A stretch of DNA of 37,374 nucleotides, taken from the NCBI GenBank assembly GCA_023265105.1, contig JAHFUJ010000002.1:16877-54250 (forward strand), in the 5' to 3' direction. Positions 1,565 to 33,775 of the stretch are shown piece by piece. This stretch comes from Acidobacteriota bacterium (GTDB lineage: Bacteria; Acidobacteriota; Vicinamibacteria; Vicinamibacterales; CAVVIG01). The translations under genes and the position numbers were made by a program. The notes under the pieces were generated by a model that did no database searches, was not told the origin of the DNA, and was given only the letters and a program-made list of their open reading frames with translations. Position 1 is the stretch's first letter, and each line of letters begins with the position of its first letter.

Positions 1565-1593
1565 CGTAACGCGCGGGACTCATCGGCGTCTAA
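1565..1593 (+). promoter_or_regulatory. ECF-type promoter motif CGTAACG-N15-CGTC-TAA
   Basis: Matches the recurring motif; lies upstream of RBS AGGAGG and ATG 1624. Confidence 0.65.
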
Positions 1594-1623
1594 CACTCCG
1601 AGTATTGCTTTAGGAGGGAATAG

Positions 1624-2229
1624 ATGCGTGTAAGAACGACCGTCGGCGGAGCCGTGGCGGCGCTCAGTCTATGCACCGCGCAGGCATCGGCTCAAAGCCG
1701 ATTCGATGTCGGGCTGCTTCTCGGGTCAACACAAGCGAGCGATGAAGGATCGGTGCTGCAATTCGATCGAGGCACGACGTATCAAGCGACCTTCGCCTGG
1801 CGTGTCTGGCAAACCGATGGCGTCAATCTCTCTATCGAAGTACCGTTCATCGCGTCACCAGCCTTTACGGTGATCACACCAGGGCCCTCGCTGCCACTGG
1901 AGTACGCATCGCTGTATCTGACGCCAGGCGTTCGCGTGACCGTTGTGCCGAAAGCCGCGGTCTCGTTCTTTGGTGCCGTTGGCGTCGGTTACGCACGATA
2001 CTCTGAGTCGAAGCTCAAGGCCGACAGGACCGCAAACCCGAACCAGCGCGATACGAACGCCGGCGCCCTCCAGTTCGGAGGAGGCGTCGATGTACGCGGC
2101 TTCGGATGGCTGGGGTTCCGGGGCGAAGTGCGGGACGTCTATACAGGTGCGCGCAACTTCTCGATTCGGACGCCGGGCGCACGTGTGCACAACGTGATTG
2201 GCTCCGGCGGTCTCGTCGTCCGGTTCTAG
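1624..2229 (+). CDS. Outer-membrane beta-barrel protein
   Basis: Signal peptide (AQASAQ), alternating amphipathic strands, C-terminal Phe (GLVVRF), good RBS. Confidence 0.75.
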   Translation: MRVRTTVGGAVAALSLCTAQASAQSRFDVGLLLGSTQASDEGSVLQFDRGTTYQATFAWRVWQTDGVNLSIEVPFIASPAFTVITPGPSLPLEYASLYLTPGVRVTVVPKAAVSFFGAVGVGYARYSESKLKADRTANPNQRDTNAGALQFGGGVDVRGFGWLGFRGEVRDVYTGARNFSIRTPGARVHNVIGSGGLVVRF

Positions 2230-2240
2230 GAAACACGACC

Positions 2241-2831
2241 ATGCGGCACGGATTCCTCTTGCGTTGGGCCTTGGTTGCCGCCCTCGTCGGCATCTCCGCG
2301 GCCGCCCGTGCGGAAGCCGAGACTCGTCCGATCGATACCGAGCATTCAACGCTCACCGTGTTTGTGTACAAGTCAGGGCTCTTCTCCGCCTTTGCTGACA
2401 ACCATGTCATCAGCGCGCCGATCGCCAGCGGGTCGATTGCGGAGGGCGCGCCGCTGGGGATCGAGCTCGTGGTCCGTTCTGCCAATCTCCGGGTCCTCGA
2501 TCCGAATCTCTCGCCCGAGCGGCGCGCGGAAGTGCAGGCACGGATGCTCGGAGCAGAAGTCCTGGATGTCACGAGGTTTTCTGACATCACGTTTGCGTCC
2601 ACAGCAATTGACCCTGCGGGGGCCGATCGGTGGAAGGTGGCCGGCCGCCTGACGATACACGGTCAAACCAGAGTCATCACGTTCTCGGTCGTCCAGCTGA
2701 ATGGCAAATATCGTGGTGAAGTTCTCATCAAGCAACGCGACTTCGGCATCGAACCGATCAAGGTGGCAGGCGGAACCGTCAAGGTGAAAGACGAGCTGAA
2801 AATCCAGTTCGAAATTGTGGCCCCTGGCTAA
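2241..2831 (+). CDS. YceI family secreted lipid/polyisoprenoid-binding protein
   Basis: Signal peptide; IDTEHS, LDVTRFSDITF, GRLTIHGQT and QRDFGI motifs. Start taken at MRHGF. Confidence 0.85.
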   Translation: MRHGFLLRWALVAALVGISAAARAEAETRPIDTEHSTLTVFVYKSGLFSAFADNHVISAPIASGSIAEGAPLGIELVVRSANLRVLDPNLSPERRAEVQARMLGAEVLDVTRFSDITFASTAIDPAGADRWKVAGRLTIHGQTRVITFSVVQLNGKYRGEVLIKQRDFGIEPIKVAGGTVKVKDELKIQFEIVAPG

Positions 2832-3406
2832 TACGGCACGCCCTTGCGTCGGGCTTCGCGCAGCGCGTCGGCGTACCATTCCAGTTCGGCGGCGAATCTT
2901 CCGAATCGGCGGTCGAGCGCCTGATCGAGCGCCATTCCACTGTCGTCGACCGCGTTCTGAATCTTCGGGATCGGGAACAAGCTGGAGATGCTCGGCATGC
3001 CGAGCTCGCAGAGCATCGCCCGCAGCTGCATCGCCGCGCGCACCCCGCCGAATCCGCCGGTCGAGTAGCACACAATCGCGGACGGCCGGAAGAAATACTC
3101 CTCCAGGAAATGATCCAGCAGGTTGCTCAACGCGGGAGGGATGCTGTGGTTGTACTCGCCGCTTACGACGACAAACCCGTCAGCTGCCCGATAAAGCGTC
3201 GCGAGCTCTTCGAGAACCGCCGGCGCCTTGCCTTTCTCGTATTCCTTGTACATGCGATCCAGCAGCGGCAATTGCACAGCGACCGGATCGACAATTGCGA
3301 CTTCGTGGCCACGGGCCGCCAGAGACTTTTCGACGTACCGCGCGGCCTTGATGCCTTGCCGATCGGACCTCACGGAACCGACCAGCACCACGAGCTTCAG
3401 ACCCAT
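2828..3406 (-). CDS. NAD(P)H-dependent FMN reductase
   Basis: VLVGSVR, GEYNHSIPPALSNLLD and GGFGGVRA motifs. Start taken at MGLKL. Confidence 0.9.
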   Translation of the reverse strand: MGLKLVVLVGSVRSDRQGIKAARYVEKSLAARGHEVAIVDPVAVQLPLLDRMYKEYEKGKAPAVLEELATLYRAADGFVVVSGEYNHSIPPALSNLLDHFLEEYFFRPSAIVCYSTGGFGGVRAAMQLRAMLCELGMPSISSLFPIPKIQNAVDDSGMALDQALDRRFGRFAAELEWYADALREARRKGVPY

Positions 3407-5379
3407 TGCTGCTCGGCTTTTCCGGCTCGCGCTGCTCGTTTGGGCTCTGGAAGCACGACACGGTCGAGACGTAGCAGCTCGCCAAGCGACCACGCCTGGA
3501 AAGGACAGCCTCTTGGCTCAAACGGTGCTTCCGCGTCGGCAATTTCCGAGACGTGCCCAAGGCCGGCCGCCTGAAGATGCGGGAACAGCGGCTCCATGAA
3601 CCGCCGCCGTGCATCACGCCGTGCGGCGCTCGTATTGCCCCGGACTCGAACCCAGGCCTCGACGAACGGACCCATCAGCCATGGCCAAACGGTCCCCTGG
3701 TGATAGACAGCATCTCGCGCCGAAGAGTCGCCTTCATAGCGCGGCGCATAGCCCGGCTCACCAGGTGCCAGCGACCGCAGACCGAGGGGCGTCAGCAGCC
3801 GCTGCTCGACGGCGTCGACGATTCGTCGCGCGCGTTCTCCTTCGATCAACGCGAACGGCAGCCCTCCAACCGCGAGAATCTGGTTCGGTCGGAACGTGTC
3901 ATCGCGCGTACCGCGAACGTGGTCCACATCAACGACGTCAGCCAGGCGTCCGGTCTCCTCGTTCCAGAACCGATCGAGGAAGGAGGCTCGTCCTCTCTCG
4001 AATGGCTCGCGCCAGGTCGAATCAAGCTGCGATGCCATCGACAGCGCATTCAACCAGAGGGCCTGAACTTCCACCGGCTTTCCGATGCGGGGTGTGATGA
4101 CTCGATCGCCCACTCGTGCGTCCATCCAGGTGAGCTGAACGCCAGGCGCCCCTGCCGACAGCAGGCCGTCCGCGTCCATCCTGATGCCGAATCGAGTGCC
4201 GGCCGCATAACCGCTGACGATCTGCTTGACCGCGGACTCGAGCGCCTGCCGTTGTTCCGACGTGAGAAGCTTCGAACGGCTCGGGGCCAGCTGCAGCAGC
4301 TCGTGGACCGCGACGACGTACCACAAAGAGGCGTCGACAGAATTGAACTCGGGCGCTTCGCCGTGGTCGGGGAACCTGTTCGGCAGCATGCCCTCTGAAA
4401 CGGCTCCGGCCCATTCGACCAAAATATCGCGCGCGTCGCCGAGCCGGCCGGTGGCGAGGCACAGCCCACGAAGGGCGATGAATGTATCGCGGCCCCAGTC
4501 CGTAAACCACGGGTAGCCAGCGACAATCGTGCGCCCGGAGCCGCGCTGTACCAGATACGAATCCGCGGCGCGATCGAGAGGTGTCGCAAGACCCTTGCGT
4601 CGGCGGCGCTCCGCGACGCGCACGTCGCTCACGAGCCTCACGACATCGTCCGCCGTCCGCATCTCCGGCGCTGGGGCTGCAGCTGCCTTGAGAATCCAGA
4701 CCGCCTGCTCGCCAGGCCCGGACAGCGGCCAGCTGAACTCGCCTGGCGACGCGAGATCTTCCGTGTCGTCCAGGCCGCGTTCGCGCTCCGCGGTGTAGAG
4801 AAACTGGCGGTACCAATCCGGCGCGTGCCGATAATCGCCGTTCGACAGCGAGATCACGGCGGGAAGTCCGTCATATGGCCGGAAGGCGACGACCGCAGCA
4901 CTCCGGTCGGCGTCGAAGCGGAACGCCCCGTTTTGGTGATGCATCGAGTGATAGTCGCGGCCGGAGAAGAACGGTCTGACGCGCAGCACGACCGGGCCGT
5001 GGCCCCGCATCAGCGACCAGACCATGACGGTTGCGCCAATGCCGTGCTGAACAAGAAGCTCGTGGGTGATGCATGTTCCGTCCGGCGTTTCGAATTCCCA
5101 CGTGGGCCACGGATCGTGCGAGAAGGTCGTGATGCGCGACGCGCCATCTGGATGAACGACGCCCGGCGCATATCGCTGCGTCGATAACGCAAACGATCCG
5201 CCCGGCGTGTCAACCCATGCGTCGAAGCCGTTCACCAGCACCACTCTGCCTGTTGGGGGTGTGAGCGCCGTCAGCAGCAGCGCGTGATATCTGCGCGTCC
5301 GCACGCCAGAGGTCGTGCCGGACGCAAACCCGCCAAGGCCGTCGGCCTCGAGCCATTCCGTTCGATCGTCGATGTGCAT
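3397..5379 (-). CDS. Glycogen debranching enzyme (amylo-alpha-1,6-glucosidase, GDE_N + GDE_C)
   Basis: EWLEADGLGGFASGT, RRYHALL, AGYPWFTDWGRDTFI, QLTWMDA, YHQGTVWPW and GCPFQAWS motifs. Confidence 0.92.
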   Translation of the reverse strand: MHIDDRTEWLEADGLGGFASGTTSGVRTRRYHALLLTALTPPTGRVVLVNGFDAWVDTPGGSFALSTQRYAPGVVHPDGASRITTFSHDPWPTWEFETPDGTCITHELLVQHGIGATVMVWSLMRGHGPVVLRVRPFFSGRDYHSMHHQNGAFRFDADRSAAVVAFRPYDGLPAVISLSNGDYRHAPDWYRQFLYTAERERGLDDTEDLASPGEFSWPLSGPGEQAVWILKAAAAPAPEMRTADDVVRLVSDVRVAERRRRKGLATPLDRAADSYLVQRGSGRTIVAGYPWFTDWGRDTFIALRGLCLATGRLGDARDILVEWAGAVSEGMLPNRFPDHGEAPEFNSVDASLWYVVAVHELLQLAPSRSKLLTSEQRQALESAVKQIVSGYAAGTRFGIRMDADGLLSAGAPGVQLTWMDARVGDRVITPRIGKPVEVQALWLNALSMASQLDSTWREPFERGRASFLDRFWNEETGRLADVVDVDHVRGTRDDTFRPNQILAVGGLPFALIEGERARRIVDAVEQRLLTPLGLRSLAPGEPGYAPRYEGDSSARDAVYHQGTVWPWLMGPFVEAWVRVRGNTSAARRDARRRFMEPLFPHLQAAGLGHVSEIADAEAPFEPRGCPFQAWSLGELLRLDRVVLPEPKRAARAGKAEQQWV

Positions 5380-5381
5380 AG

Positions 5382-5624
5382 TCAGGGCCTTGAGGCGCGA
5401 AGATACGCGCCCTCTCGGTTCCTGAAGAGGAACCCTGTCGCCGTCAAACCGTCGAGAATCCGTTCGGAGGTCGCGCGATCGAGCGCCCAGAGTCGCGCGG
5501 CCTGGGCGGGCGTCAGCCGTAGTCCTGGCATCTCGAGAAATTCACTGCGAACGCGGTGCAACAGACGTGTGATGCTGTCCTCGTGTGTTGCCCGCTCGCC
5601 AAGGGGAGCCTCCAGCATCATCAT
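5382..5624 (-). CDS. Small conserved hypothetical protein, winged-HTH-like
   Basis: RVRSEFLEMPGLRLTPAQAARLW..GFL pattern; translationally coupled to ndh (ATGA overlap). Confidence 0.7.
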   Translation of the reverse strand: MMMLEAPLGERATHEDSITRLLHRVRSEFLEMPGLRLTPAQAARLWALDRATSERILDGLTATGFLFRNREGAYLRASRP

Positions 5625-6970
5625 CGCTTCACTTCAATTGGAACAGCCATCACCTCTTCCCCACGTGTCTCTGGCGGTTTGGCGTCCGGGATACGCATCG
5701 ACAGGACGGGCGCGCGAACGGTGAGGAACTGGACGAAATCCTTCGAGAACATCAGGTCGAGGGTCCAGTCGATGGCCACGCGACACTTCTTTTCGAACCG
5801 GGGCAACTTGCTGAGATAAATCGTCCGCCACAACCACCACGCCGGGAATCCCGAGAAGTTGAACCCGAAGATCCTTGCAACGCCGGTTCGACGGCCGATC
5901 GCGGCCAACTGCCCGATCGTACGAAAGTCGAATGCGACTGCTGCGCGCCCGCGCATCACAGCGGTGATGTTCGTCGCCACGGTTTTCGCCTCCCGCAACG
6001 CGTGCTGCGCCGTGGGAGGATGCGGCTTACCGGTGCGTCGATCGGGAACGACCGCGCAGTCGCCAAGCGCCCACACGCCCGGCCATCCGGGAACGGCGAG
6101 CGTTTCATCGACGACGATTCGCCCGCGGTCGAGGCCGCACGGCAGATCGTGAATCAGTGGATGCGGCGAGGTGCCGGCGGTCCAGACGACGAGCCGGCTC
6201 GGGATGTGCCGACCATCTTCGAGCGTCACCCCGAGCTCATCGACCCTCGCGACCTTCGCGTTGGTGATGATTTCGACGCCGCGTGCCGCCAGCTTCTTCT
6301 GCGCATAGGCGCCGAGTTTCTCGCCAAGCTCGGGGAGAATCACCGGGCCGGCGTGCACGAGGACCATGCGGATCCGGTCGGGGCTCAGCCGCGGGTAGAA
6401 CTTCAGGGCTTCGCGCACGAAGTCATTGACGCCGGCCAGCGTTTCGACACCCGCAAACCCACCGCCCGCAACGACAAACGTCAGCAGACCGTCACCTTTC
6501 GCGGCGCACTCGGTGTCGCCCTCTTCGAGGGTGGCAATGACCCGATTCCGCAAGTGAATCGCATCACCGAGCGTCTTCATCGTCAGGGCGCGCTGCTCGA
6601 GCCCCGGTAAGCCGTAGAAGTTGGTGATCGAACCCAAAGCGACGACGACGTGGTCGTACTCGAGCTCGTGGCTATGACGCTCGAACCCATGCGACACCAC
6701 GACGCGGCGCCGCCTGAGATCGACCGATTCCACGTCTCCAACGAACACGCTCGTCCGCCGGAGCAGCGTGCGAATAGGGCTGACGATGTGGGTGATGTCG
6801 AGGTCGCTGGCCGCGACCTCGTGAAGCATGGGGGTGAAGAGAAAGAAATTGTCGCGGCTGACGAGTGTGATCTCCACGTCAGGGTCGGCCCGGAGCGCTT
6901 TTTCGAGATGCAGGGCTGCATGGACGCCGCCAAAGCCCCCGCCGAGCACAAGAATTCGGGTCGTTGCCAC
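5621..6970 (-). CDS. ndh: Type II NADH dehydrogenase (NAD(P)/FAD oxidoreductase)
   Basis: GGGFGG FAD motif, FLFTPMLHEVA, second GGGFAGVE, ALGDCA, PPTAQHA and GQLAAIG. Confidence 0.88.
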   Translation of the reverse strand: MATTRILVLGGGFGGVHAALHLEKALRADPDVEITLVSRDNFFLFTPMLHEVAASDLDITHIVSPIRTLLRRTSVFVGDVESVDLRRRRVVVSHGFERHSHELEYDHVVVALGSITNFYGLPGLEQRALTMKTLGDAIHLRNRVIATLEEGDTECAAKGDGLLTFVVAGGGFAGVETLAGVNDFVREALKFYPRLSPDRIRMVLVHAGPVILPELGEKLGAYAQKKLAARGVEIITNAKVARVDELGVTLEDGRHIPSRLVVWTAGTSPHPLIHDLPCGLDRGRIVVDETLAVPGWPGVWALGDCAVVPDRRTGKPHPPTAQHALREAKTVATNITAVMRGRAAVAFDFRTIGQLAAIGRRTGVARIFGFNFSGFPAWWLWRTIYLSKLPRFEKKCRVAIDWTLDLMFSKDFVQFLTVRAPVLSMRIPDAKPPETRGEEVMAVPIEVKR

Positions 6971-6987: not shown

Positions 6988-7016
6988 TTGGATGTCACGC
7001 CAGACCAAAGGTTTCA
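6988..7016 (-). promoter_or_regulatory. ECF-type promoter TGAAACC-N15-CATC-CAA for the ndh operon
   Basis: Minus-strand match just upstream of GTG 6970; divergent partner at 7026. Confidence 0.7.
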
Positions 7017-7025: not shown

Positions 7026-7055
7026 CGAAACCTTCGAGGCGGAGCGGGCATCGAA
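7026..7055 (+). promoter_or_regulatory. ECF-type promoter CGAAACC-N16-CATC-GAA for the aquaporin-GMC-VOC operon
   Basis: Motif match ending a few nt before GTG 7064, implying a very short leader. Confidence 0.7.
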
Positions 7056-11686: not shown

Positions 11687-11932
11687 GTGCCGAAGGTCCG
11701 CCGCCACGACATTCCGCCCGCGCTGTTCCAGCATCTGCTCGACCGCATCCAAAGCCGGAAGATCCCAGCAACTCAGCTGGAATTGCTGGCGAAGTGGCTC
11801 GATACCGAACCGGAAGTCCCCGAGGGTCAGTGGTTCAAACGATTCACGGGCATAACGGTTTGCGGCGAAGGAGAGTTGGTCAAGACTTTTCTCCTCCCTG
11901 GTCAGCCCGCCAAAGGCCAGAGGGTCTCATGA
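11687..11932 (+). CDS. Small basic hypothetical protein, putative toxin
   Basis: 81 aa, 14 nt after the RHH gene; HLLDR, PEGQWFKRF and CGEGELVKTFL segments. Confidence 0.55.
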   Translation: MPKVRRHDIPPALFQHLLDRIQSRKIPATQLELLAKWLDTEPEVPEGQWFKRFTGITVCGEGELVKTFLLPGQPAKGQRVS

Positions 11933-14562
11933 AGCGGGGATCGGTCGGGACGTTCCCGCAGATGGCCGCGAGCCGTGCGCATGTACTCGCGAGTTAGGCG
12001 GATGAGCGTGCGCCCGGACGTGGGCGTGATGCCCCGGCGGCGGTTCTCCGCCGCGATCTCGAACGCGATCCGCCACTGCGTCATCAGAACACGATACGCC
12101 CTCGTCAACGGTGTCCCGGGATGGTAGATGTGCGTGGCTTCCGAGGTCACGCCGTTCAACTCGATAATCTTGAACCCGCGCCCATTCCGAAATGCCTCGA
12201 TCCCTCCGTCCACTCGTACATCGAATCGTCCGAAATAGAAGCCATCGAAACCTCGCGCGATCGCGTCGAAGCGCTCTTCGAGCGCCGGTGTGAGCACCCA
12301 CGCGCCGTCGAGGAACATGGCGCCGCGGCAGTGGGTACCGAGCTCCGCGAGCGGGATCGCCTCGCCGACCGACGGCACATCCCCTAGCCTCTCGCGGTGT
12401 CGCTCACAGTAGAGCCGCGCCATGCATACCGCGCGTTCGTCCTGAAGAATCAATTCTTCCAACGTGCGTCGGCCATCGCCTACCACCGTGGGGAACCTCT
12501 TCTCGGTAATAGAAAAGACGTGACCACGTGACTCAGAGGGGTACCGGTAGTAAAAGACGCCGAACTCGGCCCCGGCGACGTACTCCTGGATGATCGTGTC
12601 GACCGACGAGTGTGCGAGACAGTCTTCAAGGGCGTTCGTTGAACGAACGACGATGACACCGGACCCACGTTGACCGTGGTTGGGTTTGAGGACGATCGGG
12701 AACGCCAGCGCTTCATCAGCCATGAAGCGTTGTGCCTCTCGAACTTTCTCGGTCTGGCTCAGACTCCCCGCAATCAGGCGCGAGCGCGCCATGTACTGGC
12801 GGGCACCGGCGAGTGCCTGAAGAATGGCGTATTTCGATTCGCCGACGAAGCCGCCTGCCTCAATCGCTGGATTGGCGGCTGTAAACAGGGTGACACTCCG
12901 ATGCTTCACCATGAGGTACACGATGTACCCGAGCAGCGGCGGATAGAACACCCAGGGCGGCCAGAATTCCCATCTCGTGCACCGTCGCCAAGACGAGACC
13001 AGCAGCCTGCGTCCCTTGGCGGTCGCCGCAAACTGGATGACCTTGAGAGCGAGCGCAACAAGCGCAATGGTGCTCACCGCACGCGCGTACGGAGACAGCA
13101 AAGCCATTGACGGGATGAACAGAACGGAACTGACGAACGCCGAAACGCCGACTGCCAAGGCTGCCCAGATGGCGTTGGCGAGCAGCAACAAAACCATGAA
13201 TCTCCACAGGCCCACGTTCAGCAAACCTGCTGCGACAGTCGCGGTACGCCGCCTGCCCAGTGCGAGCGAACTGAGGTGACGCGTCGCGACGCCGTGCTGT
13301 GAAAGGAACGCGAGGCTCCGTTCGACGGCCTCTGGCGGGAATAGCCATCGCGTCGGCGCCGCCTGGAAGACGCGCCGCCCATAACGGCGACTGCCAAGGA
13401 ATAGCAGCAGGTGGGCGATGCACATGCCAGTGAAGCAGGCGCGCACCGCCAGGGCGGGGCTCACACGTCCACGCGCAACGAGCGCGCCGGCAGCAGCACC
13501 GGTGACATTCTCGGAAACCAATGCGGCGGTCGTCAGAAGTCCACTGAACACCGCCGCGGCGATCCCCCGCACTTGCGGCAGCCGCAACGCGTCAAAGGCG
13601 GGGCTCGCTGCACGGACCCGCTCTGGATCTGCATCCGCGAGCGCCGGCGCCCGGCCCTGTTCCGCGCGATCGACGAACTCGGCAATGAGATTGCCGAGAT
13701 ACGGCGCCCTGGTGAACAGCAGGAAGTGATCTCCGTACGGTATGTGCAGCTCACTTTGAGGAATCAGGCGATGGTGCTCCTGTGCCGCCTCAATCGGCAC
13801 TTGATCGTCGTCGGTACCGTGAACAATCAGGGTCGGCACGGTCACCCGCCGAAGGATGTTGCGAAGAGGTCGTTGATCGGAATCGAAGAAGTTGCGCGCA
13901 TACGGAACATCCAACATGGCGTTGTCGAGACGGCCCATGTGCGGGGTCGCTTCGTGCAGGAGCCACAGCGCAATGAGCTGGACGCCGTGAACCGCGTGGT
14001 TGACGTAATAGTCGCCCGTCAGCTCCATCTCCTGGACGCCGATTGCCGAGAGCATCGTCAGGGACGCGACACGTTCGGGCGCCACGTCGGTCAGGTTCAG
14101 CGCAACGCCGCCTCCCATGCTGAACCCCAGCACGTGCGTCCGCCCGATGCCGAGCTGATCCAGGAGCTGCCGCACATAGACGGCGTGAGCGCGAAATGAA
14201 TAATCCGGCAGCGTGCGCGTGGAAGAACCGAAACCGGGCAGATCGGGCACGATCACCCGGGCGTGTTGCGCCAGGACAGGCGCGAGACGCCCGAAGTCGT
14301 CTTTGCGGCCCGGACTGCCGTGGAGGAGCACGATCGTTTCCTGATCCTGGCCAGAGGGCGGTGCGTACTCTCGATACGCAACGCGGATCGCCTCGGATGT
14401 GAGCCGTGTGCCGTCAACCGCCTGCGCAACGGCGACGCGATCGAATGGGCCGGCATCCGCGAGGGCCTGATGCGAGGATCGGGCGAAGAACGAGACCCCG
14501 AGCAGCAGTCCGTAGGCGCCGACGCCCAACAGTACTCGACCGCGCCGGGTTCGGGCGCTCAT
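11902..14562 (-). CDS. Alpha/beta-hydrolase - DedA/VTT - ATP-grasp fusion protein
   Basis: Hydrolase: LLHGSPG, PDLPGFG, GFSMGG, HGTDD, GDH. Central multi-TM DedA-like region. ATP-grasp: WEFWPPW, GESK, PIVLKPNHGQRGSGV, QEYV, GRFDV, IIELNGVTSE. Start taken at MSART. Confidence 0.85.
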   Translation of the reverse strand: MSARTRRGRVLLGVGAYGLLLGVSFFARSSHQALADAGPFDRVAVAQAVDGTRLTSEAIRVAYREYAPPSGQDQETIVLLHGSPGRKDDFGRLAPVLAQHARVIVPDLPGFGSSTRTLPDYSFRAHAVYVRQLLDQLGIGRTHVLGFSMGGGVALNLTDVAPERVASLTMLSAIGVQEMELTGDYYVNHAVHGVQLIALWLLHEATPHMGRLDNAMLDVPYARNFFDSDQRPLRNILRRVTVPTLIVHGTDDDQVPIEAAQEHHRLIPQSELHIPYGDHFLLFTRAPYLGNLIAEFVDRAEQGRAPALADADPERVRAASPAFDALRLPQVRGIAAAVFSGLLTTAALVSENVTGAAAGALVARGRVSPALAVRACFTGMCIAHLLLFLGSRRYGRRVFQAAPTRWLFPPEAVERSLAFLSQHGVATRHLSSLALGRRRTATVAAGLLNVGLWRFMVLLLLANAIWAALAVGVSAFVSSVLFIPSMALLSPYARAVSTIALVALALKVIQFAATAKGRRLLVSSWRRCTRWEFWPPWVFYPPLLGYIVYLMVKHRSVTLFTAANPAIEAGGFVGESKYAILQALAGARQYMARSRLIAGSLSQTEKVREAQRFMADEALAFPIVLKPNHGQRGSGVIVVRSTNALEDCLAHSSVDTIIQEYVAGAEFGVFYYRYPSESRGHVFSITEKRFPTVVGDGRRTLEELILQDERAVCMARLYCERHRERLGDVPSVGEAIPLAELGTHCRGAMFLDGAWVLTPALEERFDAIARGFDGFYFGRFDVRVDGGIEAFRNGRGFKIIELNGVTSEATHIYHPGTPLTRAYRVLMTQWRIAFEIAAENRRRGITPTSGRTLIRLTREYMRTARGHLRERPDRSPLHETLWPLAG

Positions 14563-14577: not shown

Positions 14578-14607
14578 TTGGATGCCGGGGCGCTCGCAAT
14601 CGTTACG
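14578..14607 (-). promoter_or_regulatory. ECF-type promoter CGTAACG-N16-CATC-CAA
   Basis: Minus-strand match just upstream of ATG 14562. Confidence 0.7.
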
Positions 14608-14619: not shown

Positions 14620-14648
14620 CGAAACCTCCTCAGCGCCACGGAATCCTA
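14620..14648 (+). promoter_or_regulatory. ECF-type promoter CGAAACC-N15-AATC-CTA
   Basis: Divergent partner of the 14578 site; both boxes are conserved in the duplicate at 24267 while the spacer diverges. Confidence 0.65.
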
Positions 14649-15275: not shown

Positions 15276-15305
15276 TGTAACCCGCGGCAACCGGCCGACA
15301 TCAGA
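15276..15305 (+). promoter_or_regulatory. ECF-type promoter TGTAACC-N16-CATC-AGA
   Basis: Motif match directly upstream of the RBS and start 15318. Confidence 0.65.
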
Positions 15306-18000: not shown

Positions 18001-18030
18001 TGAATCTTTTCTCGCAGTCGCTCCGTCTGA
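18001..18030 (+). promoter_or_regulatory. ECF-type promoter TGAATCT-N16-CGTC-TGA
   Basis: Motif match upstream of the second ECF gene (RBS GAGG, ATG 18056). Confidence 0.65.
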
Positions 18031-18688: not shown

Positions 18689-18731
18689 CCCGGCGTGACA
18701 TGGAACCGGCAACCTCACATGCCGGGCGATC
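18648..18731 (+). repeat. 84-bp duplicated block, copy A (ECF 3' tail + decayed promoter + first codons of the acyltransferase)
   Basis: Ungapped match to 25343-25426 with 11 mismatches by hand count; the -10 box reads CATG-GAA here instead of CATC-CAA. Confidence 0.85.
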
Positions 18732-20058: not shown

Positions 20059-20087
20059 CGAAACTACTCTGGCGCGCCGGAATCCAA
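20059..20087 (+). promoter_or_regulatory. ECF-type promoter CGAAACT-N15-AATC-CAA
   Basis: Motif match about 180 nt upstream of the gluconolactonase start. Confidence 0.55.
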
Positions 20088-22948: not shown

Positions 22949-24085
22949 TCATCGTGGCCCCAGCACAGTGAGCGCCAGGGTCGCAGGCCGACGGGGTTCG
23001 TCCGCATAGATGGCCGTGAACTCACCGCCGCGGATCTCGAGGGCCGACGCCCGGCCACCGGGGAAGAAGCTTCCGCCCAGCATGCCTGTATCTACCTGAA
23101 GGACGCGGCCCCCAAACCGCGCTGCAATTCGTCCGTTCGGCGCAACCGTATGGCCGATGACGGCTGCGCGCGCCTCGAGGCCGGACAGAATGGACATCAC
23201 CGCGGGCAGAAAGGCCTCTTCGGGCTCCTGCGTGAGACCGCGGTACCACAACGGGCCGACTTCACTCGTCACCAGCAGGGAAGCCGGATCTCGGACCGCC
23301 GCCCGGCTCGCCGCCAACTCGAGGCGAACCGTGTCGTTCATCTGATCACACCGCAGCGACGCCGCGGACGGACTGACACCGCCGTGGAGGTACAGCACGT
23401 CGTTGATCTTGACGAGGACGTGATGGTTTCGGAGCCAGCGTCCGTACTCGCCGTCGGTCCCGAACGCCTGCTGCATCTCGATGGAGCCGAGTGGGACCTC
23501 GTGAAAGAACTGCGCCCTGAACGCGGCCTCCTCGTGAGGGCGGCCGGCCGCTTTCGCCTCGCGGCTCGCTTCGGCCGCCACGACACCGAAGGCGCGTTCA
23601 CGAATCTCCTCCGACGATCCGGTCTGAAAGGCCGCGTACTCTCCGGCGCTGACGTATCGCCAATCGTCGAGCATGCGCATGACTTCGTGGTTGCCGAGCA
23701 GCGCAAACACGCGGCCGCCGGCCTGGGCCGCTTCCCGCTCGAGCCGCCTCAGAAGATCCAGCGCCCGCCTCGAGTCGGACCCGCGATCCAGGACGTCACC
23801 GGTCTGTACCAGAATCGCGCGGCCACCGATCCAGCGGTCGCGCCCGTCGATGAGGGCCGCAGCGCGAAGGATCGCGGCGAACTGTGCATAAGCGCCGTGG
23901 ACGTCGCCTACCGCGACGACCCGTTCGCTGGTCCTCACGTCGCAGGGCGACATGCCACCGGGCTGCGCCAGCGCGCGCTCGTCGAGCGCGAGAGCGGCAA
24001 GGCCCAAGGCCAGGGCCGCTCGGGTGGCCGCGCCACGCGAACGTTTCGAGTAGCGAGAAGACATGGCGACTGCCGCGTTGGGCAT
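22949..24085 (-). CDS. Calcineurin-like metallophosphoesterase (Shewanella-like phosphatase type), secreted
   Basis: GDVHG, GDVLDRG, LGNHE, LHGG, GPLWYR, GHT and VDTG motifs; signal peptide. Confidence 0.88.
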   Translation of the reverse strand: MPNAAVAMSSRYSKRSRGAATRAALALGLAALALDERALAQPGGMSPCDVRTSERVVAVGDVHGAYAQFAAILRAAALIDGRDRWIGGRAILVQTGDVLDRGSDSRRALDLLRRLEREAAQAGGRVFALLGNHEVMRMLDDWRYVSAGEYAAFQTGSSEEIRERAFGVVAAEASREAKAAGRPHEEAAFRAQFFHEVPLGSIEMQQAFGTDGEYGRWLRNHHVLVKINDVLYLHGGVSPSAASLRCDQMNDTVRLELAASRAAVRDPASLLVTSEVGPLWYRGLTQEPEEAFLPAVMSILSGLEARAAVIGHTVAPNGRIAARFGGRVLQVDTGMLGGSFFPGGRASALEIRGGEFTAIYADEPRRPATLALTVLGPR

Positions 24086-24266
24086 CGGAGGTCGCGGACC
24101 CTTGTCCGCATCCGTCAGATGCCAAATCGCCGGAACAGGTAACGGCCAGCGCCGCCCTTCCCGTCAACGGGCAATCACATGACGGGGCATCACGGGCACC
24201 CGTCCGTTCACGGATCCGACCCACTGACTCGCCCCACGATCAACCACGAACTATTCCTGCACGCAT

Positions 24267-24295
24267 CGAAACCTTCTCAACAGGACGGAATCCAA
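24267..24295 (+). promoter_or_regulatory. ECF-type promoter CGAAACC-N15-AATC-CAA
   Basis: Upstream of DM13-like copy 2; paralogous to the site at 14620. Confidence 0.68.
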
Positions 24296-25342: not shown

Positions 25343-25426
25343 TGCTCCGGAAGTAGTACACACCGCCGGGCGTAACCTCGTAACCCGGCGCGACATCCAA
25401 CCGGCAACACCACATGCCGGGCGATC
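25343..25426 (+). repeat. 84-bp duplicated block, copy B (relic ECF 3' tail + intact promoter + acyltransferase start)
   Basis: Matches 18648-18731; the ECF codon CAG is TAG in this copy. Confidence 0.85.
25371..25400 (+). promoter_or_regulatory. ECF-type promoter CGTAACC-N16-CATC-CAA
   Basis: Motif match 13 nt before ATG 25414. Confidence 0.72.
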
Positions 25427-27197: not shown

Positions 27198-27782
27198 TCA
27201 GTCACAGACAACGCTCATCGTCGAAAGACCGCGGGGTCGCATCGCAAGATCGCGCGCGAGCCGCAAGAGCATCAAGATGCCACCAGCAACCAGTAAGCGT
27301 GGTATCCACCCGAGCCCGACGATGGGCGCAAGGCGTGAGATGAACGCGTCGCCGAGGCTGACCGTCAGGAGGATGATCGTCGGCGTCCAGAGTGTCGCCC
27401 CGAGCAGAGCCCAAAGAGCGAAGACCCTACCCGGCAGCTTCAGGAGCCCGGCAATGACGTAGAGCGGGAGCCGCGTGCCGGGGAGAAACCGGCTGCCGAC
27501 AATCGCACCCGCGGCGTGTTGTTTGAGCCAGAGCTGCATCTCTTCAAATCGTCCTCGCTGGAGCTGACGGGCGACCCAGGGCCATGCCAGAGCCGCACCT
27601 CCAAACACGCGGCCTACTCCCCACAGCCCGAAATCACCAACGAAGATGCCGACGATGCACGCGAGTATGCCCGAGGCGACGCCGAGCTGACCGCGCTGAA
27701 TCAGCAGGCCTGCGGCGATGCAGGTGAGGTCTTCGGAGAGGAGTGTGCCAAACGCAAGTGAAATGAAAATGAGCACGATCAC
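27198..27782 (-). CDS. DedA/VTT family membrane protein, possibly C-terminally truncated
   Basis: LSEDLTCIAAG, GIFVGD and SRFLPGTRLP motifs. Confidence 0.85.
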   Translation of the reverse strand: MIVLIFISLAFGTLLSEDLTCIAAGLLIQRGQLGVASGILACIVGIFVGDFGLWGVGRVFGGAALAWPWVARQLQRGRFEEMQLWLKQHAAGAIVGSRFLPGTRLPLYVIAGLLKLPGRVFALWALLGATLWTPTIILLTVSLGDAFISRLAPIVGLGWIPRLLVAGGILMLLRLARDLAMRPRGLSTMSVVCD

Positions 27783-28579
27783 GCCGCCTCGACCACGACC
27801 GGCCGGCTGCGCGCGCGGTCATATTTCGAATGATGAGCGTTTTTTGCCGGCGAAGCCGGCCTACTAGGAGCGTGTTCCCATTTCTCGGACACGCTCCCAG
27901 AACCGAGTGGTTCGTAGCAAAGTTGGATGGCGCGCGAGCTGACATCGATGACAGTTCGGCTGACAGTGAGCGCATCCGATCGTTCCATGCAGACGCTGAT
28001 TTCCGGCCTTTCCATCCATTGATGACGGTGGAAGCGGAATTGCCCGCATAGCCACCCGCTCTGGTCTGCTACCACCTGCCGCTCGAACAATCTGCGCCTG
28101 GGTTCCTCAACGAGCGCGTCACCAAGCGAGGAGGATGTAAACAACAGTGGAGCGGACATCCTCGAGATTTTGCGCGACAGCCCGTATCCGTCGCTGTTCA
28201 CCACGCCAACGGTGAAGCCGTGAACCAAGACGAGGCGGAACGGCTCGAAGGAGGTCGGATCGAGCCGCTCGGCGGCGGCGATCGCGCGGCGCAGCGATCC
28301 GTGCGCCAACACTGAGGGCACGATGCTTCCGCGGCTGCAGGCGGCTCGCTGGCGCCGCACAGCCCCGTCCATGGTTCGATTGAGGAGCGTAGCCGCGAGA
28401 CCTGCTTCGTTGACGCCAACCCACGTGCCCGCGCCAACGGGATCTACCGGAAAGATCGCCGTTCTGTCCTGCTGGCAGCGGAGCTGCGGCGGCGTTGCCG
28501 CCGGGCGGTCGCGCCGTTCGTCGCGGTTGCAGACCATCCGGAACCCCTCGTCGTGCGGAACGATGGTGACCGTGCACAT
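27779..28579 (-). CDS. NRDE/TANGO2 family protein (Ntn-hydrolase-like)
   Basis: MCT N-terminus, CNRDE, GTWVGVN, SRG, PFRL and TVSRT. Confidence 0.88.
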   Translation of the reverse strand: MCTVTIVPHDEGFRMVCNRDERRDRPAATPPQLRCQQDRTAIFPVDPVGAGTWVGVNEAGLAATLLNRTMDGAVRRQRAACSRGSIVPSVLAHGSLRRAIAAAERLDPTSFEPFRLVLVHGFTVGVVNSDGYGLSRKISRMSAPLLFTSSSLGDALVEEPRRRLFERQVVADQSGWLCGQFRFHRHQWMERPEISVCMERSDALTVSRTVIDVSSRAIQLCYEPLGSGSVSEKWEHAPSRPASPAKNAHHSKYDRARSRPVVVEAA

Positions 28580-28591
28580 GGGTACACGCGA

Positions 28592-29122
28592 TCAGTGTCT
28601 TAGCGGGGTGGACGGGGAGTGGCCGAATCGCTCCGGCACCGAATGGCCGTGGATCTCGAGGAGAACCGCAATCATCGCCTGGTGATGAATCGTGTGGCTC
28701 ACGACGAACGCCAACTCGCGAGCCAGCGTGGACCAGCCGGTCACTGCATCACCCGACCGAGAAATCATCGACGTCACACGAATCGGTTCGTCGAGCGATC
28801 GCCTCGACCAGGCGCTGAGTGCGCCTTTCAATTGCAGAATGTGACGGATCGCCTCGGCGGGATCGCTTTCCACGGCCGTTCCTCGGTGGCGGCGATCGTA
28901 GGACAGCGCCGTGGACGAATCAGCGGCCAGCAGCGCCGAGACGTGATCGAGACAATGCCTGACGTGTTCCCCGATTGTGCCCGAGACGTTCGTCGCGAGC
29001 CCGGCACAGTACACCTCTGGCGCCACTTCCATCAACAGTGAAGCAAGTTCGTCCAAGAGGCGCCACAGTGCCCAGGATGGCGACTCGGTCACGCGCGGGC
29101 GTTCTTCGATGGCTGCGATCAC
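28592..29122 (-). CDS. DinB/YfiT superfamily protein
   Basis: IGEHVRHCLDH, YDRRHR and RELAFVVSHTIHHQA. Confidence 0.85.
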   Translation of the reverse strand: MIAAIEERPRVTESPSWALWRLLDELASLLMEVAPEVYCAGLATNVSGTIGEHVRHCLDHVSALLAADSSTALSYDRRHRGTAVESDPAEAIRHILQLKGALSAWSRRSLDEPIRVTSMISRSGDAVTGWSTLARELAFVVSHTIHHQAMIAVLLEIHGHSVPERFGHSPSTPLRH

Positions 29123-29134
29123 GAAACCTCCGCC

Positions 29135-29545
29135 TCAGGCGAGTTGGAAAAATCGCCCGACAATTGGAATCTGCGACCGCCGAATGACCAGCACGATCGC
29201 ACTGCCGAGGAAGGCCGTCAGCGCGAGTCCGAACAGCAGGCCACCGTCCCCCTTCACTTCAATGCCAAGGATGGTGAGGTGGCTGACAATGGCTCCGCTC
29301 ATGACGCCCATGGTGACGATGGCCCCGAGCGGCGCGGTGGCCGGCGCCAGGAGCAGGAGCGACGCAATCAGCTCGACTACCCCAGAGCCGATGCGCCCCC
29401 AGGGCTCTGCTCCCAGCTTGCTGAAGATGTAGACCGATTCCTCGGCACCCGTGAACTTGAAAAACAGCGTTTGCAAGAGGATGCCGGCGACTGCGAGCTG
29501 CAGGATCCAGCTGACGACGGTTTGAGCTTTTGATAAGTGATTCAT
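29135..29545 (-). CDS. DoxX family membrane protein
   Basis: ILLQTLFFKFTGAEESVYIF, GRIGSGVVEL and GAIVSHL. Confidence 0.88.
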   Translation of the reverse strand: MNHLSKAQTVVSWILQLAVAGILLQTLFFKFTGAEESVYIFSKLGAEPWGRIGSGVVELIASLLLLAPATAPLGAIVTMGVMSGAIVSHLTILGIEVKGDGGLLFGLALTAFLGSAIVLVIRRSQIPIVGRFFQLA

Positions 29546-29551: not shown

Positions 29552-29580
29552 TTAGATGACCCGGACCTCGAGCGGTTACG
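29552..29580 (-). promoter_or_regulatory. ECF-type promoter CGTAACC-N15-CATC-TAA for the DoxX-DinB-NRDE-DedA operon
   Basis: Ends 6 nt before ATG 29545, which suggests a leaderless transcript. Confidence 0.72.
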
Positions 29581-29592: not shown

Positions 29593-29621
29593 TGAAACGT
29601 CGCCCCGTTTCAGGCATCCAA
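29593..29621 (+). promoter_or_regulatory. ECF-type promoter TGAAACG-N15-CATC-CAA for the glucosidase operon
   Basis: Divergent partner of the 29552 site. Confidence 0.7.
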
Positions 29622-32366: not shown

Positions 32367-32377
32367 GGAGGCAAGCG

Positions 32378-33475
32378 ATGAAAGCGATAGCAGTCCTGCC
32401 CGGCAAGCCCGGCAGCGTTCACCTCGCGGAACTTGCGAAGCCGTCAGTGTCAGACGTCCCGAGCGGCCGCGGCGTGCTCGTCAAGGTGTTGCGGGTGGGC
32501 GTCGACGGCACGGACCGCGAGATCAACGCGGCCGAATACGGTGCGGCGCCTGAAGGCTATGACTTCCTGATCATCGGTCACGAGGGCTTCGGCCAGGTCG
32601 AAGCTGTGGGACCGAACGTGTCGTTTCTGCGGCCCGGCGACTTCGTCGTCGCGACCGTCCGGCGTCCTGGCAAGAGCCTGTACGACGCGATCGGGCTCCA
32701 GGACATGACGACCGACAGTGAGTACTTCGAGCGCGGGATCAACCTGCGTCACGGCTATCTGACGGAGTACTACATCGAAGACGAAGAGTTCGTCGTCAAG
32801 ATCCCCCAGGGGTTGAAGGAGGTCGGCGTGCTACTCGAGCCGATGACCGTCGCCCAGAAAGGCATCACGCAGGCGTACGAGATTCAGCGCCGCATGAAGG
32901 TCTGGCGGCCTCGAAAAGCAGCGGTGATGGGCGCGGGCACGCTCGGGCTGCTGGCCACATTGGTGCTGCGTCTCCGCGGCCTGGACGTGACGACGTTCGG
33001 CCGGACTCCGAAGCCCTACCTCAATGCCGACCTGCTCGATGCGATCGGAGCGCGGTATGTGAATACGGCCGAACGGAGCATCACCGATGCCGCCACGGAA
33101 TTTGGCCCGTTCGACCTGATCTTCGAAGGAACCGGATCGTCGGCGGTCGTATTCGAGAGCATGCAGGTACTCGGCAAGAACGGTGTGCTGGTGCTGACCA
33201 GCATCACCGGCGGCAACCACAAGTTGGAAGTCCCCGCGGACCGCATCAATCTCGATTTCGTCCTCGGGAACAAGGTGATGGTGGGAAGCGTGAACGCCAG
33301 CCGAGACAACTTCGAGACCGGCGTACGCGACATGTCTCAGGCCGAAGCCGAATACCCGGGCTGGCTGCGTCAGCTCCTCACGCACCCCGTTCGGGGCCTC
33401 GATGGATACCGTGAGCTCTTCGACCGCTTGCAAAATCCCAACGGCGCGATCAAGATCTTCTGTGAGGTGAGCTGA
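32378..33475 (+). CDS. gdh: Glucose 1-dehydrogenase, Zn-dependent MDR family (archaeal type)
   Basis: [35 protein letters not shown] and GSVNA. Confidence 0.85.
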
Positions 33476-33505
33476 CGCATGCCGCGTCGCCCGAGGAGCT
33501 ACTCA

Positions 33506-33748
33506 GTGACGTGCCGCGAATTCGCCGACTTCATGATGGACTACCTGTCGGGCGAGCTGCCGTCTGAGTCGCGAGCCCTGTTCGATCACCACCTGAGTTT
33601 GTGCGCCAATTGCCGGAAGTACCTCACCAGCTATGACGAGACGGTGACGCTCGGAAAGCGTGCGTTCGATGACGAAGAGGCGGCGTTGCCGGCAGATGTC
33701 CCAGAGCAGCTCGTCAAAGCCATTCTCGCCGCGCGCCGTTCGGCCTGA
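33506..33748 (+). CDS. zf-HC2 (ZAS) soluble anti-sigma factor, not adjacent to a sigma gene
   Basis: CREF..DYLSGEL..HLSLCANC; RBS GAGGAG before GTG 33506. Confidence 0.88.
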   Translation: MTCREFADFMMDYLSGELPSESRALFDHHLSLCANCRKYLTSYDETVTLGKRAFDDEEAALPADVPEQLVKAILAARRSA

Positions 33749-33775
33749 AACCAGAACGTCCCTTCCGTCATCTAA
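33746..33775 (+). promoter_or_regulatory. ECF-type promoter TGAAACC-N16-CATC-TAA
   Basis: Motif match upstream of the spondin-LtrA genes. Confidence 0.7.

Follow-up and report, generated by a model that had tools for sequence, protein, structure and literature searches.

An accessory island of Vicinamibacterales with transcription units nearly all headed by one predicted ECF-type promoter, probably read by a resident sigma factor

We analysed a 37,374-nt stretch of DNA (the window; G000:C372:16877-54250), the right-hand 37.4 kb of the 54-kb contig C372 in the Vicinamibacterales assembly G000 from an uncultured acidobacterium of soil or groundwater, for a bipartite sequence that recurs upstream of its genes and resembles a promoter read by sigma factors of the extracytoplasmic function (ECF) type. 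Two such factors are encoded in the window: ECF-A, a large fusion protein, and the smaller ECF-B. The window probably holds an accessory island whose transcription units are nearly all headed by this one ECF-type promoter, read by the local ECF-B. Units headed by canonical copies of the sequence cover approximately 28 of approximately 35 genes between 1.56 and 35.8 kb (Table 1). Genes were mapped using crude open reading frame (ORF) calls together with Pfam and NCBIfam profile scans of the window ORFs. The assembly comprises 452 contigs and 4,958,481 nt (~64% G+C) at ~80% completeness and 0.9% contamination.

A first-pass annotation of the window had listed 15 copies of the sequence, and each of the 15 was found with the sequence and position it had given. 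Its proposal of a single motif holds for 12 of them; the copies at 17071 and 18001 do not fit, their -35 element being GAATC. The list was also incomplete: a scan with a position weight matrix (PWM) added a site at 24115-24143(-), which scores 17.6 bits and lies 29 nt upstream of a metallophosphoesterase gene, so that 13 sites are canonical. Plus-strand sites are numbered here as the earlier start +1 (1565 becomes 1566, 7026 becomes 7027). Gapless alignment of the 12 sites gave the refined consensus [C/T]G[A/T]AAC(C) - 17 or 18 nt - (C/A)[A/G]TC[C/T]AA, and the form common across the 13 is YGWAAC(C)-N17/18-(C/A)ATCYAA. Specifically, the -35 element, with its AAC core, reads G[A/T]AAC in all 13, and [A/G]TC follows GWAAC after 17 or 18 nt in every case (ATC in 12 sites, GTC in one). 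The spacer sequence is unconserved among sites, apart from two duplicated pairs. An AAC core at -35, a GTC or ATC core at -10 and a spacer of 17/18 nt make up the ECF promoter form, which the first reading had recognized from its AAC and (C)GTC elements, and the -35 variants TGAAAC and TGTAAC equal the -35 of Bacillus subtilis SigW/SigX. By its form, the motif is thus predicted to act in transcription as an ECF-type promoter.

The motif is concentrated in the window. The strict form, G[AT]AAC-N17/18-[AG]TC[CT]AA on both strands, occurs 16 times in the assembly, nine of them within the window, which makes up 0.75% of the assembly. In 300 dinucleotide-preserving shuffles of the window, the mean count was 0.07 and the maximum 1. 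The seven matches in the 4,921,107 nt outside the window correspond to 0.05 per window length. The physical clustering that had been described was therefore borne out against both backgrounds (9 vs 0.07 and 0.05; Poisson P = 9e-18). A reverse-read control of the strict form gave nine matches outside the window and none inside; the outside count of 7 against 9 for the control places the strict form at chance level beyond the window. The looser pattern as first written was likewise enriched but poorly specific, with 18 matches vs 4.39 in shuffles (maximum 12) and 4.28 at the outside rate. Scans for sigma-70-type promoters and for terminators found 3 vs 2.9 expected and 15 vs 14.2 expected, respectively.

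Scores from the PWM of the 12 sites gave the same picture. The 10 highest scores in the genome (25.6-30.5 bits) all fall in the window, and the best score outside it is 21.0 bits. To remove circularity, each site was also scored using the matrix of the other eleven. In this leave-one-out analysis, 10 of the 12 sites score 19.4-25.5 bits, with zero to three equally good positions elsewhere in the genome; the remaining two, at 1566 (13.1 bits) and 15277 (8.4 bits), are weak, with 90 and 705 outside positions as good, respectively. Most outside matches of at least 16 bits (22 of 29) lie inside crude ORF calls. One of the outside matches, at C198:22067, is the predicted own promoter of another ECF paralogue.

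All 13 canonical sites face an ORF, with a candidate start 3-183 nt after the -10 hexamer; the distance is 3-70 nt apart from the single value of 183 nt. The upstream, gene-facing placement that the first-pass annotation described thus stands for the canonical sites; it is doubtful for the copy at 18001, which overlaps a terminator-like hairpin. Four pairs of sites are divergent, and in three of these (7015/7027, 14606/14621 and 29579/29594) the sites stand back to back with -35 boxes 10-20 nt apart. Such pairs form GTTTC...GAAAC inverted repeats, to which a dimer could attach, and two site pairs do derive from duplications. The independence of the sites is limited to this extent: sites 14621 and 24268 head paralogous genes, and 18677 and 25372 lie within a duplication of ~85 nt. 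The repeated sequence might on these grounds be a conventional transcription factor site, a dispersed repeat or duplicated DNA, which is the least probable of the explanations that we weighed. Single sites without an inverted partner are equally conserved, the two boxes are dissimilar and split by the spacer, and spacers are unrelated outside the duplicated pairs. Moreover, the sites are strictly gene-oriented at short distances from starts, and their boxes match the ECF consensus. A housekeeping promoter was ruled out, as beyond the island the motif is no more frequent than expected by chance.

Other genomes were scanned using a matrix trained on the window alone. In at least eight other Vicinamibacterales genomes, rearranged islands were found in which orthologous genes are preceded by the motif, and every cluster found is co-located with an ECF-B orthologue; such orthologues lie beside motif clusters in G001, G002, G003, G016, G023, G221, G252, G167, G197 and L004/L005. 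In G001, an 8.3-Mb long-read metagenome-assembled genome (MAG) with its island on a 1.18-Mb contig, 13 sites of at least 22 bits occur in 39 kb around ECF-B, together with two further sites at 16.7-17.8 bits. There, six of 16 genome-wide matches to the strict form fall in 27 kb (reverse-read control, 9). The 18-kb contig of G002 carries six sites, and G003 has six sites of at least 18.7 bits in 19 kb of a 2.7-Mb contig, ~6-25 kb from its ECF-B orthologue. G016 has a compact island in which five sites accompany genes for the debranching enzyme, GMC, glyoxalase, ATP-grasp, TANGO2, DinB, DoxX, GH63 and ECF-B. One arm of a divergent site pair in G023 lies directly before the start of the ECF-B orthologue. 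In L004 and L005, a BON gene and a PP2C gene adjoining the ECF-B orthologue are preceded by one site.

Island proteins of G000 and G001 are 60-91% identical. The orthologues of OlsF, the DoxX operon, GH63, GMC, LtrA and the HbpS-like protein keep their site despite changed order or orientation: the OlsF-type site (25372) is retained in G001, G002 and G003, and the HbpS-like orthologue of G001 has a site of 24.9 bits. Five more genomes of the family were picked solely for having an ECF-B orthologue, and the strict pattern was counted. In G221, eight of 18 strict matches fall within 27 kb around the orthologue; in G252, five of 14 lie within 47 kb on the ECF-B contig; G167 has two within 5 kb of the orthologue, G197 has one adjacent to it and G208 has none. 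Among 20 taxonomic relatives, the number of strict matches within 30 kb never exceeds two. Eighteen of these 20 lack an ECF-B orthologue (best identity ≤42%); the other two, G016 and G023, belong to other families and have one of 60-62% identity.

From ~1,560 to at least 35,800, the window is occupied by an accessory genomic island of patchy distribution. Of the 118 genomes of the family, 19, G000 included, encode an ECF-B orthologue (E ≤ 1e-55). Among the 56 high-quality genomes the number is 8, and 12 of 43 genera are represented, with a patchy distribution within genera. G004, which is of the same genus and only 82% complete, has no ECF-B orthologue. The left 16.9 kb of contig C372 and window positions 1-1522 are syntenic with G004, G005 and G006 at 67-79% DNA identity, and this synteny stops at 1385-1522. 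In G006, neither an island gene nor a good site is present in the 12 kb past the sulfatase gene. This places the left border at ~1,555, immediately ahead of the first site. The border is spanned, over positions 760-1782, by one contig of run X1; X1 may be the source sample and thus not independent.

The runs listed for window positions 24000-33900 are four DNA runs, all of one groundwater metagenome study, with no RNA run among them, and the closest loci found to carry the local sigma factor are in Acidobacteria gp6/Vicinamibacterales MAGs. The G+C content of the window resembles that of the remainder of the genome. No integration gene was obvious among the Pfam-scanned window ORFs, and a tRNA scan found none. 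Mis-binning of contig C372 was considered and is not favoured: its left flank is syntenic, and other family members have islands. Confinement of the motif is also seen, independently of C372, on megabase contigs of G001, G003 and G221.

The two sigma factors differ in architecture and distribution. ECF-A has two AhpD/CMD-like 'peroxidase-related' domains N-terminal to its ECF sigma domain, which begins at about residue 415. The best 120 of 1826 matches to it all have the same three Pfam domains, and most are ~590-630 aa; the shared three-domain architecture of the 120 matches listed indicates that the fusion is real. Some ECF-A homologues are named 'peroxidase-related enzyme' by NCBI. Both in the window and in G111, ECF-A is followed by a soluble zf-HC2 anti-sigma, which in the window has the HxxxCxxC motif as HLSECRTC, a pairing feature of the zinc-binding anti-sigma (ZAS) type for ECF-A. 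No ECF-A orthologue was found in G001, G002, G003, G016 or G023, where the best identity is 36-41% over the sigma part only; of the 151 genomes that represent the order, 2 were found to encode ECF-A. After PRK11922, the best NCBIfam models for both ECF-B and ECF-A are SigW, SigM and RpoE, with similar scores; all scores are below the curated equivalog cut-offs, and neither sigma therefore belongs to the SigW/SigM/RpoE families. N-terminal extensions are described as rare and short in the main text of the ECF re-classification (PMC7826278). That text makes no mention of STAS or carboxymuconolactone, and its supplementary tables may classify ECF-B or ECF-A. A literature search found no description of a CMD-fused ECF or of an acidobacterial clustered ECF regulon.

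A sigma factor encoded elsewhere might read the motif, the local sigmas being mere cargo. The core paralogue at C198:22262-22777 is an example, having a similar promoter of its own, TGTAACCTT-N-GGTCTAACCGTG, that is conserved in the same-genus genome G004. Site 1566, with its -10 CGTCTAA, is closer to the C198 type than to the island type, and cross-talk between the C198 sigma and the island motif, for example at 1566, is possible. However, the C198 -10 is GGTCTAA vs CATCCAA in the island, the paralogue and its promoter are present in relatives that have no motif cluster, and the clusters co-occur with ECF-B rather than with the C198 core gene. We consider control by such an outside factor very improbable.

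Several points weigh against ECF-B as the reader of one island-wide regulon. Both the strict pattern and the PWM were built on window sites, which makes the in-window statistics post hoc; independent support must therefore come from other genomes. An unbiased 4-mer dyad screen of ~590,000 tests did not single out the motif after correction (GAAA..CCAA at a gap of 20 occurred 6 times vs 0.5), because degeneracy and two spacer lengths divide the signal. Three of the 13 sites, 1566, 15277 and 24143, are weak, and about six island genes (10792-11932, BON, the 173-aa ORF and a Gly-zipper gene) have no site even in a low-threshold scan. The island extends to at least 35,800, the end of the contig limiting its delineation on the right, and at an assembly completeness of only ~80% the apparent confinement of the motif to the island could miss sites. 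G208 and L006 have an ECF-B orthologue and no motif site detected nearby. ECF-B has no adjacent anti-sigma or STAS gene in the window, and it has no canonical site of its own here: the score of the copy at 18001 is under 0 bits, and a terminator-like element overlaps this copy.

The remaining points concern ECF-A. Its operon is headed by the island-type site 15277; its only orthologue found, in G111, has GAAAC-N17-ATCGAA directly upstream, which fits autoregulation, and sits on a different contig from the ECF-B-like genes of G111. The ECF-A sigma domain is 37% identical to ECF-B, and the two have their top NCBIfam models in common. Furthermore, ECF-A has a cognate zf-HC2 anti-sigma and ECF-B has none here. 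Freed from this anti-sigma, ECF-A might mainly or also read the motif, with ECF-B redundant or reading part of it. This alternative implies overlapping specificity of both sigmas, as is the case for the promoters of B. subtilis SigW/SigX/SigM. We nevertheless consider it unlikely. At least five genomes without an ECF-A orthologue have motif clusters; the clusters track ECF-B, not the rarely occurring ECF-A; and the G111 site could equally be a target of ECF-B, because G111 has two ECF-B-like genes.

The comparative data point to ECF-B as the sigma with which the motif is conserved, and ECF-A is probably an inserted input module. As to autoregulation of ECF-B, the genomes differ: in G023 a 21.3-bit site lies immediately upstream of the start of the ECF-B orthologue; in the window, ECF-B is preceded only by the variant copy at 18001, and an island-type site (15277) stands before the adjoining upstream operon; in G001, G002 and G003, a sigma-54-type promoter is found instead. 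The interpretation of the first-pass annotation was thus partly supported. Its outline of one ECF regulon in one stress island agrees with the enrichment, gene content and conservation, but the two local ECFs are not equal drivers since the clusters track ECF-B; the reading is better centred on ECF-B, and ECF-A would be an input or a co-reader specific to its lineage.

The apparent inputs to ECF-B vary between genomes. A STAS-like gene of 97-106 aa (Pfam STAS_2 2.5e-5 and 1.1e-3, below cut-off) lies upstream of the ECF-B gene in G001, G002 and G003, and the two genes overlap. This operon is preceded by GGCAT-N5-TTGC, presumably a sigma-54 -24/-12 promoter form, and by ACGAAAT/ATTTCGT inverted repeats. 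Beside the operon is a giant Ser/Thr-kinase-AAA-GAF-sigma-54-activator gene, whose frame in G003 is open over 1849 aa. In G016 and G023, a zinc-finger anti-sigma follows the ECF-B orthologue. No STAS homologue was found in assembly G000 using tblastn, and no sigma-54-type promoter is present upstream of 18056 in the window. The place upstream of ECF-B is occupied instead by the operon of the HbpS-like protein, the double AhpD-like-ECF-A fusion and the zinc-finger anti-sigma. The sensory input to ECF-B thus appears swappable between lineages, with the output promoters untouched. The operon behind 15277 suggests a thiol or peroxide input, with feed-forward via read-through or a weak promoter. 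As the window has neither STAS/sigma-54 nor an ECF-B-linked anti-sigma, control of ECF-B here is inferred; it could proceed by read-through from the 15277 promoter, from a weak promoter at 18002 or through an ECF-A-dependent step.

The two variant copies at 17071 and 18001 belong to a different class from the island motif and are doubtful as promoters. The 10-mer TGAATCTTTT has two copies in the assembly, one in each of these sites, and composition alone predicts about five. As the first-pass annotation stated, 17071 is intragenic, sitting in the coding linker of the fusion protein. The -35 of site 18001 is overlapped by a hairpin and T-run at 17982-18012, the best terminator-like element of the region. 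This 8-bp, GC-rich hairpin lies six bases past the anti-sigma stop codon, is followed by AATCTTTTCT and is plausibly an intrinsic terminator.

The copy at 18677 is a decayed one, as had been proposed: its -10 has changed from CATCCAA to CATGGAA and no intact gene follows. It arose within the duplication of ~85 nt (~18647-18732 and 25342-25427), which runs from the 3' end of ECF-B through the promoter into the first codons of OlsF. In G001 and G002, the OlsF-like gene directly follows ECF-B; in the window, ~6.7 kb is inserted between them, carrying genes for BON, the 173-aa ORF, SGL, PP2C, the metallophosphoesterase, the 142-aa protein and cupin. The copy that retains its gene (25372) has CATCCAA, and the geneless copy has lost exactly the TC core of the -10. 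This is the pattern expected if selection keeps the TC core only where a gene is driven.

From these data we infer that ECF-B reads the motif and that the response would be to stress, the mode of ECF-B activation being a matter of prediction. RNA polymerase with ECF-B would initiate at all 13 promoters and would switch on ~28 genes together in a general-stress-type programme. Four functions would be served. Envelope and lipid remodelling would involve the OlsF-like aminolipid synthase, two DedA/VTT proteins, OMP, YceI and LtrA. Water and osmotic functions would involve the aquaporin; the BON-domain protein is in the island, but no motif site was found upstream of it. Redox, quinone and thiol functions would fall to NDH-2, FMN reductase, DoxX, DinB, glyoxalase and the HbpS-like protein, and sugar and storage carbon to the glycogen debranching enzyme, GH63, glucose dehydrogenase, the gluconolactonase-like protein and GMC oxidoreductase. 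In its gene content the island resembles a stress regulon.

More tentatively, and with somewhat less than an even chance in our estimation, the island is a portable 'regulon in a box': an ECF sigma with ~13 promoters and 28 stress-protection genes that is gained, lost and reshuffled among Vicinamibacterales, with lineage-specific inputs plugged in. These inputs would be a sigma-54/giant kinase-enhancer-binding protein with STAS, a zinc-finger anti-sigma or, here, the AhpD-fused ECF in an ECF-to-ECF cascade.

Table 1. Predicted promoters, genes and other features of the island, in window coordinates unless a locus is named. Bits are PWM scores; '+n' is the position of the candidate start in nt after the -10 hexamer.
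Feature	Coordinates	Strand	Remarks
Predicted promoter, weak	1566..1593	+	-10 CGTCTAA; 20.5 bits; leave-one-out 13.1; ATG with AGGAGG at +30
Outer-membrane protein (OMP) beta-barrel gene	1624-2229	+	Pfam OMP_b-brl 1.2e-5, below cut-off; unit of 1566
YceI-like gene	2241-2831	+	Pfam YceI 9.6e-18; unit of 1566
Four-gene operon of site 7015	2828..6970	-	Pfam
NADPH-dependent FMN reductase	2828-3406	-	7015 operon
Archaeal-type glycogen debranching enzyme	3397-5379	-	NCBIfam TIGR01561, 379 bits; 7015 operon
80-aa ORF	5382-5624	-	7015 operon
NDH-2 type oxidoreductase	5621-6970	-	First gene of 7015 operon
Predicted promoter, strong	6988..7015	-	30.5 bits; leave-one-out 25.5, 0 outside as good; GTG at +17
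Predicted promoter, strong	7027..7055	+	27.5 bits; leave-one-out 22.0; starts +8 (GTG), +44 (ATG)
MIP-family channel (aquaporin)	7064-7867	+	NCBIfam MIP 4.2e-34; unit of 7027
GMC oxidoreductase	7864-9435	+	Pfam; unit of 7027
Glyoxalase/dioxygenase-fold protein	~9630-10568	+	Pfam; unit of 7027
886-aa alpha/beta-hydrolase + VTT (DedA-like) + ATP-grasp protein	11902..14562	-	Pfam; ATG at +15 after site 14606
Predicted promoter, strong	14578..14606	-	28.1 bits; leave-one-out 24.3, 0 outside as good
Predicted promoter, strong	14621..14648	+	27.3 bits; leave-one-out 21.2; ATG with AGGAGG at +61
Secreted 142-aa protein	14710-15138	+	Paralogue of 24356-24784; unit of 14621
Predicted promoter, weak	15277..15305	+	-10 CATCAGA; 19.8 bits; leave-one-out 8.4; start +12/+15
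HbpS-like (GlcG-type) haem-degrading/sensor-like protein	15318..15806	+	Pfam PF03928 2.4e-30; unit of 15277
ECF-A, 598 aa	15927..17723	+	Pfam CMD + Sigma70_r2 + r4_2; TIGR01926 183 bits; unit of 15277
Variant site TGAATCTTTT-N-CATCCAA	17072..17100	+	In ECF-A linker coding sequence; 7.2 bits; doubtful promoter
Soluble zinc-finger anti-sigma, 86 aa	17716..17976	+	zf-HC2 2.6e-11; start overlaps ECF-A stop; unit of 15277
Variant site TGAATCTTTT-N18-CGTCTGA	18002..18030	+	25 nt upstream of ECF-B; below 0 bits
ECF-B, 210-aa ECF sigma	18056..18688	+	Pfam r2 + r4_2
Decayed OlsF promoter duplicate	18677..18705	+	-10 CATGGAA; ECF-B 3' end; 18.1 bits; alignment
173-aa ORF	18715-19236	-	No canonical site upstream
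BON-domain protein	19332-20036	-	Pfam BON 3.1e-14; no canonical site upstream
Predicted promoter, strong	20060..20087	+	28.2 bits; leave-one-out 22.9; GTG with GGAGG at +183
SGL/gluconolactonase-like gene	20271-21917	+	Pfam; unit of 20060
PP2C (SpoIIE) phosphatase	21904/22024-22851	+	Pfam; unit of 20060
Calcineurin-like metallophosphoesterase	22949..24085	-	Pfam 2.1e-12
Predicted promoter, added by PWM scan	24115..24143	-	17.6 bits; ATG at +29; heads metallophosphoesterase
Predicted promoter, strong	24268..24295	+	28.9 bits; leave-one-out 22.8; ATG with AGGAGG at +60
Secreted 142-aa paralogue	24356-24784	+	Unit of 24268
Cupin protein	24721-25233	+	Pfam; unit of 24268
Predicted promoter, strong	25372..25400	+	27.1 bits; leave-one-out 23.1; ATG at +13
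OlsF-like bifunctional aminolipid synthase	25414-27192	+	NCBIfam OlsF 9e-118, 394 bits, below 620 cut-off
DedA/VTT	27198-27782	-	Pfam; 29579 operon
TANGO2-like	27779-28579	-	Pfam; 29579 operon
DinB-like	28592-29122	-	Pfam; 29579 operon
DoxX	29135-29545	-	Pfam; first gene of 29579 four-gene operon (27198..29545)
Predicted promoter, strong	29552..29579	-	25.6 bits; leave-one-out 20.2, 2 outside; ATG at +6
Predicted promoter, strong	29594..29621	+	25.8 bits; leave-one-out 19.4, 3 outside; ATG +3 or +36
GH63/MGH1-like glycoside hydrolase	29625 or 29658 to 32366	+	Pfam; unit of 29594
Glucose dehydrogenase	32378-33475	+	Pfam; unit of 29594
Predicted promoter, strong	33747..33775	+	27.6 bits; leave-one-out 22.9; ATG at +70
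Spondin_N-domain secreted protein	33846-34589	+	Pfam; unit of 33747
LtrA	34586-35788	+	Pfam; unit of 33747
C198 paralogue promoter	G000:C198:22067-22095; L103:1662 (G004:C189)		-35 island-like, -10 differs
GGCAT-N5-TTGC region	L082:8400-8900 (G001); L001:8250-8720 (G002); L085:17150-17430 (G003)		

Further observations concern individual sites and genes. No Shine-Dalgarno sequence accompanies the starts at 29545(-), 29625 or 29658(+), 7064(+) and 25414(+), which lie 3-13 nt past the -10 hexamer. As several starts are only 3-17 nt from the hexamer, some transcripts may be leaderless or nearly so. The two 142-aa secreted paralogues have near-identical promoters and AGGAGG leaders and a weak match to DM13 (E 0.07); one copy of this protein is present in G001 and one in G002. 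Between the GMC and glyoxalase genes, at 9480-9610, is a GC-rich hairpin resembling repetitive extragenic palindromes (REP) in two to three tandem copies, with the core GTCCGGCTTNAGCCGGAC. The summed contig depth over this repeat is ~580-1600 in three of the four metagenome runs vs ~10 alongside, and dozens of unrelated contigs converge there. This pattern suggests that the REP-like element is very abundant in the sampled community.

Another recurrent ECF-like site, GAAACAAT-N-CCAGTCTAA, is shared by many of the order's genomes and sometimes forms a divergent pair. It occurs at G018:C8:282138/282202, G022:C21:285952/285992, G009:C26:25418, G008:C4:15210, G015:C1:1894507, G221:C4:146471 and G252:C556:4024, and is presumably the promoter of another, core ECF.

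By likeness of organization, the closest analogue of the island is the HrpL/hrp-box regulon. In Pseudomonas syringae, according to PMC8228185, sigma-54 with HrpR/HrpS makes the ECF sigma HrpL, which reads the hrp-box promoters of the hrp/hrc cluster. As in that account, the ECF lies within an accessory island, and a shared bipartite promoter heads many clustered operons. The ECF-B operon of G001, G002 and G003 also resembles hrpL in standing behind a sigma-54-type promoter beside an enhancer-binding protein gene, so that these relatives share all three tiers of the HrpL system, whereas the window shares the clustered output tier only. In the window, the sigma-54/enhancer-binding protein/STAS input is absent, and another ECF/anti-sigma module is in its place. 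Further differences are the cargo, which consists of stress, redox, lipid and sugar genes rather than a secretion machine; the phylum, Acidobacteriota; and the -10, which is ATCYAA rather than the CCACNNA of HrpL. Moreover, HrpL has many targets beyond its island, and none above chance was detected here.

Descriptions of ECF regulons usually concern either one or two operons in the neighbourhood or stress regulons that are dispersed. The alphaproteobacterial EcfG (GGAAC-N16/17-CGTT), B. subtilis SigB and Escherichia coli RpoS control dispersed core-genome stress regulons. The island resembles these in its BON/OsmY-like, YceI, glyoxalase and glucose dehydrogenase proteins, its quinone/FMN reductases and its glycogen/compatible-solute enzymes, and resembles EcfG in its ECF-type promoter with an AAC -35. 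It differs in being contiguous and accessory. An EcfG/PhyR system was ruled out, as the Pfam-scanned window ORFs include no response-regulator or sigma-mimic domain (PhyR, NepR) and thus no such partner switch. The B. subtilis SigW/SigX/SigM promoters are TGAAAC-N16-CGTA and TGTAAC-N17-CGAC; the -35 elements (TGAAAC/TGTAAC) are identical to those of the island, whereas the island -10 is (C/A)ATCYAA.

ECF41 sigmas, as described in PMC3426412, have a neighbouring, separate CMD (AhpD-like) target gene, a C-terminal extension, no anti-sigma and one transcript. ECF-A resembles them in its link to AhpD/CMD-family proteins and a presumed role in oxidative stress. Membership in ECF41, whose C-terminal extension is large and SnoaL-like, was ruled out by architecture: relative to that description, ECF-A has two CMD-like domains fused at its N-terminus and a zinc-finger anti-sigma, ECF-B has no extension, and the island has ~13 predicted transcripts. 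As a side result, the matches to ECF-A point to a large family of ECF sigmas with an N-terminal double AhpD-like domain.

To our knowledge, essentially no promoter has been characterized in Acidobacteria subgroup 6, and the sigma/promoter pair from this group is a possible orthogonal part for synthetic circuits. The island would represent an entire multi-operon stress regulon that is linked to its sigma and behaves as an accessory unit. The exchange of the input to the same sigma between lineages would be an instance of modular rewiring. As such, the island may serve as a model for how a pre-wired stress response moves, or is lost, in one piece.

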